A stretch of DNA of 58,156 nucleotides, from positions 1 to 58,156 of the forward strand of contig JALHMH010000031.1 of NCBI GenBank assembly GCA_022844165.1, read 5' to 3'. Origin of the DNA: Lysobacterales bacterium (lineage in GTDB: Bacteria > Pseudomonadota > Gammaproteobacteria > Xanthomonadales > SZUA-5). This document shows positions 3,600 through 8,937 of the stretch, one piece after another. How positions within the stretch are numbered: position 1 is the stretch's first letter; the number at the start of each line of letters is the position of its first letter. Made by a program: the position numbers and the translations under genes. The notes under the pieces are model-generated. The model was not told the DNA's origin, searched no databases, and saw nothing but the letters and a program-made list of their open reading frames with translations.

Positions 3600-4130
3600 G
3601 TGGCGAACACCGTTCCGATCAGTGTCATGGGTACAAGACCCGCACAGTATGCGGCTGGGATCATTGCAGTCGGCAACAACCGACTGACGCATCAGTTGTC
3701 GAACTATCAACAAGGCTACTGGTACGTGGTGCTGGACGCCTCAAATCTCAACGTTGTGTTCAACGCGGTTGAGCCAAGCGGCAGCACGTTGCCGAACTTC
3801 GGTGTCAGTGGCCCTGGGTATCTGCTCGCTGTCGTAACGCTCGGTGTCAGCTTCGACAACCAGCCGCAAGGCGCGCTTTTCAAGTTCCTGATGGCCAACG
3901 GCGCTGGTGCGCGCCTGCTGGCCATCGAGCAGTTGGCCACGCAGATCGGCTGCGGTTCGCTAGGCGGGTTCACGTACACCTTCGTCACCACGCTCAACGA
4001 TCCCAATCCGGGCTTCGAGGCGTACGACACCGAAGTACAAGCCGGCTACACCGCCATCCAGACATTGTCATTGCTGGCCGTTAGTCAGCCCAGCGGCGGT
4101 GTGATGTACACACCGATTGCGCTGGCCTGA
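3600..4130 (+). CDS. Hypothetical protein, paralog 1
   Basis: GTG start after AAGGAGG; collinear similarity to 4243..4779. Confidence 0.8.
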   Translation: MANTVPISVMGTRPAQYAAGIIAVGNNRLTHQLSNYQQGYWYVVLDASNLNVVFNAVEPSGSTLPNFGVSGPGYLLAVVTLGVSFDNQPQGALFKFLMANGAGARLLAIEQLATQIGCGSLGGFTYTFVTTLNDPNPGFEAYDTEVQAGYTAIQTLSLLAVSQPSGGVMYTPIALA

Positions 4131-4242: not shown

Positions 4243-4779
4243 ATGGCCTCACCTTTACCACTTTCGCTGTTTTCATACATGCCGACTGCCAGCTATCCGT
4301 TTTCGAACATCGCCGTGGGAAACAACACCTACAGCCAGCAGACGCCGAGTCCTGGCCTGCAAGGCTATTGGTTTCTGGTGCTCGACTCGGCAACGCTCAA
4401 AGTAGTCGCCAATGTGTTTCAGGCTTCCGGCAACCAGGCGCCAGCCCTGGCGGCAAGCCCCGGCGACATCTTGATCGTGACCACGCTTGGCGTCACCTTC
4501 GACAATCAACCACAAGGCGCGCTGACGACCTTCTTGCAGGAAAACGGGGCTGGCGTTGGCTTGCTCGCGATCGAGCAGTTAGGTAATCAGTTCGGTTGCG
4601 GTACCTTGGGCGGTTTCGCATATTCCTTCGTCACCACCTATGGCGACACCAATCCCGGTTTCGAAGCGATGGACGCGAGCGGCGATACCGGCATCCAGTG
4701 CATCCAAACCCTGATGCTCGATCCGGTCACGCAGCCCAACGGTGGCGTGATCTACACGCCGGTGCAGTTAGGGAGCTGA
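4243..4779 (+). CDS. Hypothetical protein, paralog 2
   Basis: ATG after AGGAGA; shares IAVGNN, QGYW, FDNQPQGAL, LLAIEQL, GCG-LGGF and NPGFEA with paralog 1. Confidence 0.8.
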   Translation: MASPLPLSLFSYMPTASYPFSNIAVGNNTYSQQTPSPGLQGYWFLVLDSATLKVVANVFQASGNQAPALAASPGDILIVTTLGVTFDNQPQGALTTFLQENGAGVGLLAIEQLGNQFGCGTLGGFAYSFVTTYGDTNPGFEAMDASGDTGIQCIQTLMLDPVTQPNGGVIYTPVQLGS

Positions 4780-5014
4780 TGCGCAGCGGGCCGAAAGCGC
4801 TGCTTGCGGCGCTGGCTGGCCTGGGCCAGAAGCCAACTCAGACGAAGCCACGGAGATACGGCGTTTCCTGGCATAAGGGAATCCTGACTTCTTCGTGGCT
4901 TCGGTCATTGTGTGGCGCTCAGGGCTTGATGCCATTCTTGCGAACAAAAGTGGTGGGCCATGTTCGTTGCACCAAACCGAACTGTCTCACCACCAACACC
5001 TGAAGACCCTTAGC

Positions 5015-6178
5015 GTGACGAAACGCCACCTGCTGCTGCTCGGCTGGTACAAACCTGGCACGGGCTTTACGCGCGTGCTGGAATCGCTGCTGCCATATCT
5101 GGCGCAAGAATTTCGCATCACGTGGTACGGCGTCGGCTACAAGGGCGATGTCTTCGAACCCATGCCAGGCGTCAAGGTTCTGCCCACAAATCTGCGCGGA
5201 GGCGATCTGATTGGCGCTTATGCGGCCGCCGCCGCCTGGAATGAACTGGCGCCCGACGCGGTGCTCGCGCTCAACGATCTTTGGTACCTCAAACACTACA
5301 CGCACACGCTGGGCCCGCTGCGCGGCGCGGTGCCGATGGTGGGCTATGCACCCATCGACGGCATTCTCGACGACCCGCGCTGGATCGAAGCGCTGGTCGC
5401 TTTCAGCACGCTGATCACCTACACCGAATCGGCCGCCGACAACGTGCGCGCAGTTGCGCGCGAAGCAGGACTTGCGCTGCCCGTGGCCGTTGCCGGCCAC
5501 GGCGTCGATCACAGCCGATTTCGCCCCAGTGCGCTCACGTTGGATGAAAAGAAAGCAAAGGCGCAAGCGCTCTTTGGGCTGGATGCGCCAGCCTCCATGA
5601 TCCTCAACGCCGCACGCCCCGATCCGCGCAAACGCATCGATCTCACCTTGGCCGGTTTCGCGCCTTTTGCCCACGTGCACCCGGACGCCTACCTGTGCCT
5701 GCACCACGCGATCGAACACACGCCGGCCATCGATATACTGCGCCAACAGGCTGCCGCACTCGGCATTCAAAATCGCGTACTGTTCTGGCCGAAAACCCCA
5801 GGGCCACTGAGCGACACCGATCTCAACGCGCTCTACAACGCCTGCAGCGTTGGCATCAACACCGCACACGGCGAAGGTTTTGGCCTGGTGAGCTTCGAAC
5901 ACGCCGCCACCGGCGCACCGCAAATCGTGCCGGGACAAGCCGCGCTGATCGAGTTATGGGGCACGAACGCGCATTGCCTGCCAGCAAGGCCCATACGCAC
6001 ACCGATCTCGCCGCTGCCGATGGTAGAAGTACAACCAGCCGACATCGCCGCCGCGCTCACGCAACTGCACCACGAGCCGCATTGGACCGCCGCCAGCGCC
6101 GCTGCATTGGCGCACGTGCGAGACCCACGGTTCGATTGGTCAGTCGTCGCCGAGCGGCTCCTGGTGCATTTGCGCTGA
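5015..6178 (+). CDS. Glycosyltransferase family 4 (GT-B)
   Basis: GTGFTRV, HGVD, RKRID, LYNA, EGFGLVSFEHAATGAP motifs; start estimated at GTG 5015. Confidence 0.85.
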   Translation: MTKRHLLLLGWYKPGTGFTRVLESLLPYLAQEFRITWYGVGYKGDVFEPMPGVKVLPTNLRGGDLIGAYAAAAAWNELAPDAVLALNDLWYLKHYTHTLGPLRGAVPMVGYAPIDGILDDPRWIEALVAFSTLITYTESAADNVRAVAREAGLALPVAVAGHGVDHSRFRPSALTLDEKKAKAQALFGLDAPASMILNAARPDPRKRIDLTLAGFAPFAHVHPDAYLCLHHAIEHTPAIDILRQQAAALGIQNRVLFWPKTPGPLSDTDLNALYNACSVGINTAHGEGFGLVSFEHAATGAPQIVPGQAALIELWGTNAHCLPARPIRTPISPLPMVEVQPADIAAALTQLHHEPHWTAASAAALAHVRDPRFDWSVVAERLLVHLR

Positions 6179-6195
6179 GGCAAGACATTCGCGCG

Positions 6196-6650
6196 TCAGT
6201 CCAACGCGGTGGCGATGCCAATATTGCCATGCATTTGATACAGCCCCCAATCGTTTGCTGGCAGCGCTTTCACCCCCACGGTGCGCTCGCGATACTCGCC
6301 CTCTTCACCGTCGGCATAGGGAAAGCTTCCGTTGTAATTCGCCTTGTCCGGATCAACCTGCGCGCCAAAATGAAACGGCGTCACCGTGCCCGCCCGGCAC
6401 GCATATTCCCACTGCGCCTCAGTGGGCAAATCGGCGCCCGGCAAGCCCAGAACCGCCATCTGCTTGAACAGTTCTTGGGCGTCCAGCCAACTGACGCGTT
6501 CCAGCGCATGCGCTGGCGCACATCTTTGATCTCGAACTCGGCCCACAGCCCATATTGATCATCGCCCCAGGCATCGGCCCACGGCGGCGGAAAGGGATCG
6601 GGGTCGCGGTCCACTAGCGGCTCAGACACGGCCTGCCCCGCGAGTTGCAA
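6196..6650 (-). pseudogene. FGE-sulfatase (CLec-fold) DGR target-type gene, internally deleted and 3'-truncated
   Basis: Frame A reads PPPWADAWGDDQYGLWAEF...QRMRW; frame B reads ERVSW...LPTEAQWEYACRAG...PANDWGLYQMHGN and then stops without VWEW or the variable region. Confidence 0.85.
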
Positions 6651-6831
6651 CGAACTTTCGCCCAGCCGCTGCGCGACTTGCAGGCAAAGTCGGCGCGCCG
6701 GAGGGCGTTCGTGATCTCACTACTAACGCTCCGGCGGCCTTGAGGTTTGGTCGATGGCGGTCAATTGCCATCGACACTGGACGCCACATCTGGTCCATGG
6801 CGCTTTGGGCATCCGCCGGCTGCGCGCCATT

Positions 6832-6960
6832 GAGCTCAGGACAAGACGCATGCCAACGTTGTTGTTCCGGTTCTCGGGCGAGTTGGCGTTGCGGCAAGCG
6901 GCGCGCAAGTTCCTGGCGTTGTTGTTCCAAGAGCCGCCGGGCAGCGCACGTTGCGTGTTG
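6832..6960 (-). repeat. DGR template repeat (TR)
   Basis: Minus strand reads NTQRALPGGSWNNNARNLRAACRNANSPENRNNNVGMRLVLS; all 11 Asn codons are AAC; lies immediately after an RT fragment. Confidence 0.85.
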
Positions 6961-6971
6961 CGTGATGGGAA

Positions 6972-7337
6972 TCAGCACGAAGCATACTCCCTTGTCTCGC
7001 ACCACAGCCGCTGACGAAAGCCTTGGCTTTGACTATGCGCCAGCGACGCCAGAAGTACATCGTGCGCGCGTTGCAGTTGTGCTTCGCGGTCGCCACATTC
7101 GCCGGCATCGTCGCGCTCGAAGCGCAACAAGCGTTTGACGCCCGCCCGATAGCGCGACAACTTTCGCGCGCTCGGCAACACCACGCCCGGCTTGATGCGA
7201 AAACCACAGTACGCAACACCGCACGTGCTGCGCCCGATCTGCGCGTTGGGCTTCAACCTGAGCTTTCGTTCCTGCCAAAGCCAGTCGCCGACCGCATGCA
7301 GAACCGATTTCGCGGCCCGCCCATCCTCGCACCACCG
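6972..7337 (-). pseudogene. Reverse transcriptase C-terminal fragment (DGR type), YxDD and everything upstream missing
   Basis: Open frame WCED...VLHAVGDWLWQERKLRLKPNAQIGRSTCGVAYCGFRIKP matches RT domains 6-7 (LxLxLKP...GxxFxGFRI); in-frame TAG at 7338-7340 where YxDD is expected. Confidence 0.75.
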
Positions 7338-8239
7338 CTATCAACTGCGAACTGCAAGACACCGGTTGTCAGCCGACTGCCAATCTCCTGTTGTAGGTAG
7401 CGTTCAGCGCCGACAAGAAACATCAGAGCAAGCGAATATGACAGCGAGTCAGCCGAGTCTGTCTTGGGAAGGTCTGAGGCCTTATGCCGAACTCGCTCGA
7501 GAAACCTAAGACCACCTTCCTCCTCATATAAAATCGCATCCAAAGCGGCGCGGCTGGTGCATTGGGGCAGCAAACTCAACAAGCGTTTCTCATCTGGACT
7601 GCCCTGAACCCGAATTTCGTCGATGCGCTTGAACAATGCAGTTTGTAGTCGCGTTGCAACGGTGCAATCAGTTGGCGGGAACGCGGATGCAGAAGGCGCA
7701 CTCGGCGTCGGATCGGCCGCAGGCAAAGGCGCGTGTTCTCGAAGATGTTCTGCCAGATCCCGCATCGCGTTATTGGCTGCAAGCAGAAGATCCTTTTCGT
7801 TGTTGACCACTTTGTAGATTCGATGCTCGCCAGAGTTACCATCTTTCGACTTAGCGCGCTCCCGAAACGCTTCGAGGCTGTCGATGTCAGCCTGATTTTT
7901 GTCGCCTGCGCCTGTTGGGTAATCGTCACTGAGCAGGATCAACTTGATAGCTTTGTCCAAGCGAATCGCTTCATTGAACTCCAGTTCAGTAATGGACAAG
8001 TTCTTAGGATTTTTCGTTGACACTGGACGCTGGCCGTAGCGTCGCCCGATCAGCAACACGTAGGCATGCGACCTTCGAACCATGTCGAGTGAGTTCTCCA
8101 GCACACTGGCGTTGACTCCGCCGTCGTTGTGCTCCATGCCCTCGGCGTATAGCTTCGCCCTATCTGCGGCGCTCATCAAAACTTGCCGCTGCGAACTTAG
8201 ATCGCTAAACGTGCTTGAAATCATCACCGCGTGATGCAT
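7253..8239 (-). CDS. DUF4062 domain protein, probably C-terminally truncated
   Basis: VMISSTFSDL..QR, YVLLIGRRYG, SITELEFNEA; the 3' end runs out of frame into the RT fragment. Confidence 0.85.
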   Translation of the reverse strand: MHHAVMISSTFSDLSSQRQVLMSAADRAKLYAEGMEHNDGGVNASVLENSLDMVRRSHAYVLLIGRRYGQRPVSTKNPKNLSITELEFNEAIRLDKAIKLILLSDDYPTGAGDKNQADIDSLEAFRERAKSKDGNSGEHRIYKVVNNEKDLLLAANNAMRDLAEHLREHAPLPAADPTPSAPSASAFPPTDCTVATRLQTALFKRIDEIRVQGSPDEKRLLSLLPQCTSRAALDAILYEEEGGLRFLERVRHKASDLPKTDSADSLSYSLALMFLVGAERYLQQEIGSRLTTGVLQFAVDSGGARMGGPRNRFCMRSATGFGRNESSG

Positions 8240-8454
8240 CGACGCCCCCGTCAGATCGTCGGTCCGGATCTGACGATGGCTTAGCAGTTTTCGATTTGCA
8301 AGCATTGTTGCGTTTCAGATCTGCCGAGTCTTGGTGCAACTCTTGAGCGGTCACGGCTTGGCGATCGGGCTCTTTGGTGCTGCTGCTCCGCCGCCGTGGC
8401 TTGGCGTCATCATCGGTGTATTCCCGCCGGGCTTTTTCGACAGAACCGATAGGG

Positions 8455-8937
8455 CTACGTTGCCTGCCCACCGCGCTCCTCCTGCGCAACGCGCCGGATG
8501 TAAGCCTGGAAGCCCGGATCCTCGCCGCGCAGCAGGTGCGGCAGCGCGTCGTGGAACTCGTCGCGCCCGCACCACTCGCGCATGTAGTCGTCCCAGCTGT
8601 TCCAGCGCCGGCGCTCCTGCACCGTCATTTCGTCTTTGTAGGCGACCAGGTAGGCTCGCTCGAACATCGAGACCAACATGTCGAAGATCACCAGCATGCG
8701 TTCGCGCTGCTCCGCCGTGGCCGAGGCCAAAGCGGCACTGCTGCGCAGCTGCAAGTCGGCGTTGGCGAGCACGACTTTCAGAAAGTCGTTGTAGGCTGTC
8801 GCCAGCAACAGATAGGCCTCCTCCTCCTCGTTCTCGCGCTCGGCGCGTTCCTGCTTGATGAACACCCAGACGGCGAAAGGCAGGCCAATGACGGTGACGA
8901 TGTAGCTTGCGAGTTCGAAGCCTTCGAGCCAGGTCAT
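8455..8937 (-). CDS. Hypothetical membrane-anchored protein
   Basis: N-terminal TM segment (LASYIVTVIGLPFAVWVF) and strong GC3 codon bias. Confidence 0.7.
   Translation of the reverse strand: MTWLEGFELASYIVTVIGLPFAVWVFIKQERAERENEEEEAYLLLATAYNDFLKVVLANADLQLRSSAALASATAEQRERMLVIFDMLVSMFERAYLVAYKDEMTVQERRRWNSWDDYMREWCGRDEFHDALPHLLRGEDPGFQAYIRRVAQEERGGQAT

Follow-up and report, generated by a model that had tools for sequence, protein, structure and literature searches.

A probable relic of an HRDC-type diversity-generating retroelement in a Lysobacterales genome

Known diversity-generating retroelements and the locus considered here

The prototype of the diversity-generating retroelements (DGRs), that of Bordetella phage BPP-1, has the order avd, template repeat (TR), spacer and reverse transcriptase (RT), with its target gene upstream and a structured RNA 3′ of the TR. 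The locus considered here occupies 6196..8305 on the minus strand of a 58,156-nucleotide (nt) stretch of a Lysobacterales bacterium (contig JALHMH010000031.1, assembly GCA_022844165.1), the whole of which is referred to as the window. It is very probably the inactivated relic of a chromosomal DGR, one that belonged to a known class, the HRDC-type DGRs attached to MoxR-type conflict systems, and has since decayed. The element resembles BPP-1 in the adenine-specific mutagenesis of its TR, in the lectin fold of its target and in the structured RNA that follows the TR on its 3′ side; unlike BPP-1, its RT precedes the TR, the accessory of its relatives is HRDC instead of Avd, and it is chromosomal and decayed.

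HRDC-containing DGRs are 'Architecture C' in the excerpted text of Wu et al. (2018; PMC5758913). As in that class, relatives of the window locus have HRDC directly upstream of the RT (three of five loci) and FGE-sulfatase/C-type lectin targets with a C-terminal variable repeat (VR). The window itself differs in that an HRDC gene, a catalytic RT and a VR are all absent, and the order RT-TR-second target of the relatives, with another target upstream, is one specific arrangement. MoxR-ATPase-associated DGRs diversify putative sensors of conflict systems, according to excerpts of Kaur et al. (2020; PMC7159879) and Dore et al. (2024; PMC10907252, 'clade 5A/DGR 8' type). Relatives and a same-genus genome (G001) resemble these in the MoxR-like AAA gene that directly precedes a large target, the N-terminal extension of which contains no known domain, and in adjoining TIR/SEFIR, DUF4062 or kinase effectors; at the window locus a GT4-conflict glycosyltransferase forms the flank. 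Here, however, deletion has taken both the ATPase and the large sensor, and the likeness to the clade 5A type is one of gene content. In Thiohalocapsa PB-PSB1, the same excerpts of Dore et al. describe truncated DGR RT genes and decayed redundant parts, brought about by transposons and repeats resembling miniature inverted-repeat transposable elements (MITEs). The window likewise holds a truncated RT and decayed DGR parts, but no insertion sequence or MITE was seen at its junctions, where no search aimed at either was made.

Parts of the relic

A first-pass annotation, made from the letters of the window, had proposed a hidden and fragmented DGR in five parts: a DUF4062 gene, the 3′ third of an RT, an AAC-rich repeat, a structured spacer and an FGE-sulfatase gene. 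All five lie on the minus strand where it had placed them, as follows.

7253..8305, minus: DUF4062 open reading frame (ORF) of 350 amino acids (aa) (PF13271, E 2e-16)
6972..7337, minus: DGR-type RT stub, the last 121 codons (7337..6975) and the stop (homology by phmmer)
6832..6962, minus: TR, with a VR-matched span of 6956..6832 (AAC codons, VR identity, position in relatives)
6692..6831, minus: conserved structured RNA, a spacer-like element of the DGR RNA (alignment with four loci)
6501..6650, minus: small FGE-sulfatase target, 5′ piece in frame A (orthologue of the 339-aa VR2 gene of G001)
6196..6546, minus: small FGE-sulfatase target, middle piece in frame B (PF03781 positions 90-185 of 255 over 6546..6199, E 3e-16)
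6193..6220, minus: deletion junction, where ~745 nt of G001 (L021 11507-12252) are replaced by ~27 nt

Three observations identify these parts as remains of a DGR: the adenine-specific pattern between the TR and VRs, the position of the TR directly beside a DGR-type RT, and the structured RNA that flanks the TR. The proposal is borne out in that the RT fragment is the C-terminal third of a DGR-type enzyme, the TR stands where relatives have theirs and its differences from VRs are adenine-specific. Of the two versions that had been offered, a dead DGR or a stand-alone TR, the former gains support, with catalytic RT, VR and intact target all missing. As also claimed, no VR, avd or YxDD was found at the locus, nor any other accessory gene such as HRDC. 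The word 'repeat' has to be given up for the AAC-rich segment, which is single-copy across the whole assembly. Because no catalytic RT and no VR remain, the element cannot diversify anything, and the remnant is almost certainly inactive.

Taken alone, the relic is a case of ordinary gene decay, albeit of a kind that ORF-based annotation misses; a lone AAC-rich template can nevertheless be recognised from raw sequence.

The template repeat and the variable repeats of a sister species

The TR is 125-131 nt long and begins 10-16 nt past the RT stop codon, an arrangement also found in four related loci (L029, L030, L031 and L033, below). Its translation (6962..6832) agrees with the one given in the first-pass annotation, and a recount of its Asn codons again gave 11 AAC and no AAT, one AAC lying just upstream of the VR-matched span. 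Three neighbouring ORFs do use AAT (AAC:AAT of 8:3, 3:5 and 9:6). The 29 adenines of the TR are distributed over the codon positions as 15 at the first, 13 at the second and one at the third.

VRs for comparison come from G001, which is syntenic with the window on the GT4 side at 88% identity. The order of genes at its site is DUF4062 (499 aa), protein kinase, AAA_5 ATPase, a 959-aa FGE protein, a 339-aa FGE protein and GT4, and both FGE genes (L021, C18, 7713-11849) bear a VR. The TR is 78-79% identical to the two VRs, and over 122 aligned columns at least one VR differs from it at 22 of 26 TR-adenine positions and at 10 of 96 other positions (Fisher p 6.8e-13). Nine of these ten non-adenine differences are common to both VRs and represent ordinary lineage divergence, while the VRs differ from each other at 17 positions, 16 of which are TR adenines. 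Since the differences concentrate at TR adenines, 6962..6832 is a genuine TR and orthologous to the one that wrote the G001 VRs. The BLASTN search that had been proposed for finding VRs thus has a divided outcome: in the assembly itself the TR yields short chance matches only, and VRs with adenine-biased differences are found in G001.

The G001 assembly (99% complete) contains no TR and no homologue of the window RT; its two RVT_1 matches are a retron-like orthologue and a distant RT of 31% identity. Because neither TR nor DGR RT is present in that assembly, its FGE genes look like diversified sensors that became 'frozen' once the diversifier had been lost. This reciprocal loss within one genus has left each species with the half of a single ancestral element that the other lacks, namely the template and an RT stub here and frozen diversified targets in G001. 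DGR-diversified sensor genes can accordingly outlive their diversifier.

The reverse transcriptase stub

The stub frame (7337..6975) is directly preceded by two in-frame stop codons, and its RT homology starts at 7334, about four residues past the position of the YMDD box in relatives. Fingers and palm, with the catalytic box, are gone, so that about two thirds of the enzyme, counted from its N-terminus, are missing. Against 1.84 billion representative proteins, phmmer returned 104 matches at E<=1e-3 and 29 at E<=1e-10 for the stub, which aligns with the last ~110 residues of full-length proteins of 331-394 aa. Eleven of the 104 matches were scanned with Pfam; RVT_1 was present at E<=1e-3 in ten of these and above the Pfam cut-off in eight. 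The relatives carry LPIGxLTSQ and YMDD, and an SQ-type RT motif 4 ([LIV]GxxxSQ) is a hallmark of DGRs. When the 349-aa RT of an Ideonella metagenome-assembled genome (MAG) was compared with the whole genome, its sole match was the stub, through residues 234-344; residues 1-233 have no counterpart. Catalytic YxDD and a DGR-type motif 4, by which a functional DGR is recognised, are both lacking from the stub.

The profile check that had been suggested for 6972-7337 gave no Pfam or RVT_1 match, and it is phmmer that ties the stub to full-length RTs. According to the first-pass annotation, a fragment with no RT profile match together with an AAC-rich segment that forms an FGE coding end in relatives would have spoken against a DGR; half of this was found, and in form only. 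The missing RVT_1 match does not refute an RT, because that profile ends before the thumb region, and the TR does match FGE coding ends of G001, yet as a TR matches its VRs, so that this is no refutation either.

Among 38 relatives from its family or order, none matches the stub. The cassette is therefore patchy in its distribution, and there is no close intact orthologue for comparison. A locus search seeded with the stub alone retrieved no related loci.

Related loci

A pattern scan built from a six-sequence alignment, with one genome taken per species, yielded seven related loci. TR/VR pairs are present in four of them: L029 (Ideonella), L030 (Defluviicoccus) and L031 (Phycisphaerales), with two VRs each, and L033 (a gammaproteobacterial MAG), with one. 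In all four the TR starts within ~20-40 nt of where the RT match ends, and downstream of it lies a small VR-bearing FGE-sulfatase gene. The mismatches in these pairs fall mostly at TR adenines (12/13 and 14/16 in L029, 15/17 and 13/17 in L030, 11/14 and 14/17 in L031, 17/24 in L033). No repeat pair was found in L032, which ends right after the RT, in L034, which starts inside the RT, or in L035, which is 25% identical.

Five loci were scanned upstream of the RT. An AAA_5 (MoxR-like) gene occurs in four and HRDC in three; four encode an 884-1114 aa protein with a terminal FGE domain and the other VR, and two have a TIR/SEFIR gene. One RT representative (P0019) is an HRDC-RT fusion. The cassette of the relatives thus reads MoxR-like AAA, large FGE (VR1), HRDC, RT, TR, small FGE (VR2). 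The MoxR-like AAA, the large VR-bearing FGE protein and the effectors are absent from the window and present in G001 (DUF4062, Pkinase, AAA_5, 959-aa FGE) and in L029-L032.

A conserved structured RNA 3′ of the template repeat

About 140 nt past the TR are strongly conserved between the window and its four intact relatives. The consensus of the five sequences has 40 base pairs, 13 of them with compensatory changes on both sides, among these a stem pair that has changed from G-C to A-U in this genome alone. Of the cells, 89% are paired, against 36-47% in slid controls, and 0-1 of 500 shuffles come up to the real values, although the structure was derived from the same five-sequence alignment that was used for scoring, which favours it. 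The structured spacer that had been claimed is therefore visible in the alignment with the related loci, even though a single-sequence fold of 6975..6620 is no better than shuffles (z -0.85). A search of 5800-8600 against Rfam gave no match at E<=1. In the present genome ~15 nt are missing at the tip of the last stem. The counterparts, each 3′ of the TR, are located as follows.

L029 7495-7665
L030 7522-7700
L031 7503-7680
L033 7421-7590

By analogy with the spacer RNA of BPP-1, this stretch of the DGR RNA probably serves in RT binding and priming. It has been kept across Burkholderiales-like, alphaproteobacterial, planctomycete and gammaproteobacterial DGRs of this RT-TR clade, so that a clade serving MoxR-type conflict systems shares a 3′ structured RNA across several phyla, without there being an Rfam family for it. 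It is important to point out that neither the conserved RNA nor the reciprocal loss changes the current understanding of DGRs.

Lesions of the locus

Three lesions separate the locus from an intact element. The first lies between the DUF4062 ORF and the RT stub. Residues 1-224 of the ORF are 66% identical to the 499-aa DUF4062 protein of G001 (L021:3590-5086), which heads the syntenic conflict-system operon of that genome, and nothing matches beyond; the last ~28 codons are an out-of-frame reading of the RT stub. DUF4062 homology thus stops at ~7676-7704 (aa 224) and RT homology starts at 7334, leaving ~340 nt without a relative; nothing is left of the kinase, the AAA gene, the large target and HRDC, and only a third of the RT. 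A homologue search with aa 190-350 of the ORF, against proteins of 192-613 aa, returned the self-match only. Codon-position GC over 7633-7340 is like that of the N-terminal DUF4062 part, and overall GC rises from 0.53 to 0.63 at ~7340.

The second and third lesions lie in the small target. Its 5′ piece is 90% identical in DNA to G001 (6623-6500 against L021 10908-11031), and its middle piece is 86-88% identical (6503-6220 against L021 11224-11507 and 9955-10235). At 6500-6503, ~190 nt have been deleted relative to G001 and the frame is shifted. The homology of the middle piece then stops at 6220, ~80 nt short of the start of the G001 VR, and the third lesion has removed the rest of the lectin fold, VR2, the C-terminal tail and intergenic DNA before G001 synteny resumes at the convergent GT4 gene (4895-6178, plus). 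The local FGE gene is consequently no intact target: its reading frame is shifted, it spans positions 90-185 of the 255 in the profile, and it breaks off ahead of any VR.

Both of these lesions are bridged with 0 differences by Logan contigs, which were assembled independently from public runs, the second by X1 (5500-6560) and X2 (6345-6940) and the third by X1 (5500-6560) and X4 (5615-6329). An X3 contig over 6359-6520 was not counted as bridging, as it extends only 20 nt beyond the 6500 junction. One X4 contig with an opposite-strand joint (6329/6858) was taken as a low-depth artefact.

A possible ancestral locus and its decay

The ancestral locus would have opened with a DUF4062 effector gene, accompanied or not by a kinase gene, followed in order by a MoxR-like AAA gene, the large FGE gene with VR1, HRDC, RT, TR with spacer RNA, and the small FGE gene with VR2. 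In such a locus the DGR probably once served to hypermutate two sensor-like proteins of a MoxR-ATPase conflict system at their C-type-lectin (FGE-sulfatase-fold) ends. The RT would have copied the TR-spacer RNA into cDNA with misincorporation opposite adenines, and the mutagenised cDNA would then have replaced VR1 and VR2. In the genome as assembled, deletions have since taken everything between the DUF4062 gene and the codons just past the YMDD box of the RT, together with the ~190 nt and ~745 nt lost at the small target, and what remains is the TR, the spacer RNA and a stub of the RT thumb.

Partners elsewhere in the genome

The assembly as a whole (99.97% complete) was surveyed for parts that could complement the relic. 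A scan of the 102 non-adenine positions of the TR over both strands gave 56/102 as the next best window; as positive controls, the G001 VRs reach 88-89 and DGR repeats from other phyla 65-74. RVT_1 is found in two genes only, both of which best match PADLOC retron RT models:

G000:C20 (L011 12194-13243), plus: intact retron-type RT (PADLOC RT_other, E 3e-111)
G000:C6 (L012 7729-9126), minus: intact retron-type RT (PADLOC RT_XIII, E 1.5e-150)

The assembly therefore offers no second DGR-type RT able to act in trans. The search for an intact RT or avd gene that had been recommended ended with one accessory-like gene, remote from any RT:

G000:C8:10808-11086 (L037 4249-4686), plus: lone Avd-family (PF05635) four-helix-bundle gene, no RT nearby

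The ORFs around it have no Pfam matches. No homologue of the HRDC accessory was found in the assembly, the sole HRDC match lying inside a 623-aa ORF on C6.

Alternative explanations

Several observations weigh against the view that the locus is a dead DGR, and a small doubt attaches to that verdict, its sources being the RT junction, for which the assembly is the sole witness, and the derivation of the genome from a metagenome. The stretch 7242-7422, where the first lesion falls, is not covered by any Logan contig from the four runs (X1-X4). The metagenome data behind the assembly are of low depth, with a word depth of ~4-5 in X1, and DGR parts could lie on unbinned or unassembled DNA; the loss of RT and TR from G001 is, likewise, an absence at the level of the assembly. 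Finally, the TR and spacer look undamaged, with all AAC codons kept and a compensatory stem change, and continued use would leave them in the same state; this condition also fits a recent death. The uncovered junction and the low depth leave some room for a mis-join near 7335, in which case the real genome keeps an intact RT, perhaps together with HRDC and the large VR1 target, and the damage to the DGR is only partial. Metagenome assemblies are known to break up at DGR loci whose VRs vary. Such an artefact is nonetheless unlikely, given that the missing two thirds of the RT, HRDC and the large target are found nowhere in so complete an assembly, that no repeat is visible at the junction to cause a mis-join, and that the composition of the DUF4062 ORF is constant up to ~7340; moreover, the small target is dead independently, through two lesions that contigs bridge.

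The other version put forward in the first-pass annotation, a stand-alone TR-spacer RNA that still functions, served in trans by the RT of a resident or incoming element and acting on targets at a distance, finds little room in this genome and has to be considered very improbable. The intact TR and spacer RNA with its conserved structure would suit it, as would the statement, in the excerpts of Kaur et al. (2020; PMC7159879), that TRs can sit apart from their targets in a genome. Against this, the assembly has no VR-like sequence, its best window of 56/102 remaining below the 65-74 of distant DGR repeats; it has no DGR-type RT, both of its RTs being of the retron type; and none of its five other FGE-sulfatase genes matches the TR. 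A related idea, to which equally little probability can be given, holds that the TR-spacer RNA is an orphan template, transcribed and kept by selection, that an incoming or unassembled DGR RT could use, or else an RNA in a new role; if the orphan template were real, the lineage could regain targeted hypermutation without re-acquiring a template. The possibility that the AAC-rich segment is simply the coding end of an ordinary or pseudogenised FGE-sulfatase gene, and the 'RT' an unrelated ORF, is close to negligible. It could appeal to the stub having no Pfam match and to a weak, sub-threshold match (E 8e-4) of the segment with the last part of the FGE-sulfatase profile. However, what lies upstream of the segment is an RT thumb and no FGE domain, the segment occupies the same position as the TRs of four intact relatives, its differences from the G001 VRs are adenine-specific, and 28 of its 29 adenines fall at codon positions 1-2. 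The reading of the locus as an inactivated DGR is thus preferred.

Other features of the window and genome

Residues ~225-322 of the DUF4062 ORF (~7340-7676), for which no relative is detectable, could be an orphan adaptor domain or a scrambled remnant. Elsewhere in the genome, C30:38706-40155 encodes two FGE-sulfatase domains in tandem ORFs (557 and 221 aa), a layout that recalls the large and small target pair. These tandem genes and the other three FGE genes were considered as remote targets and rejected, as they show no likeness to the TR.

The GT4 glycosyltransferase gene that is convergent with the relic (4895-6178, plus) and syntenic in G001 scores just over the cut-off of the 'GT4 in conflict systems' family, with 28.7 bits against 26. 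Beyond it lie two tandem paralogues on the plus strand, 3600-4130 and 4243-4779 (176 and 178 aa), which are kept beside the GT4 gene in G001 as well (L021 13656-14828).

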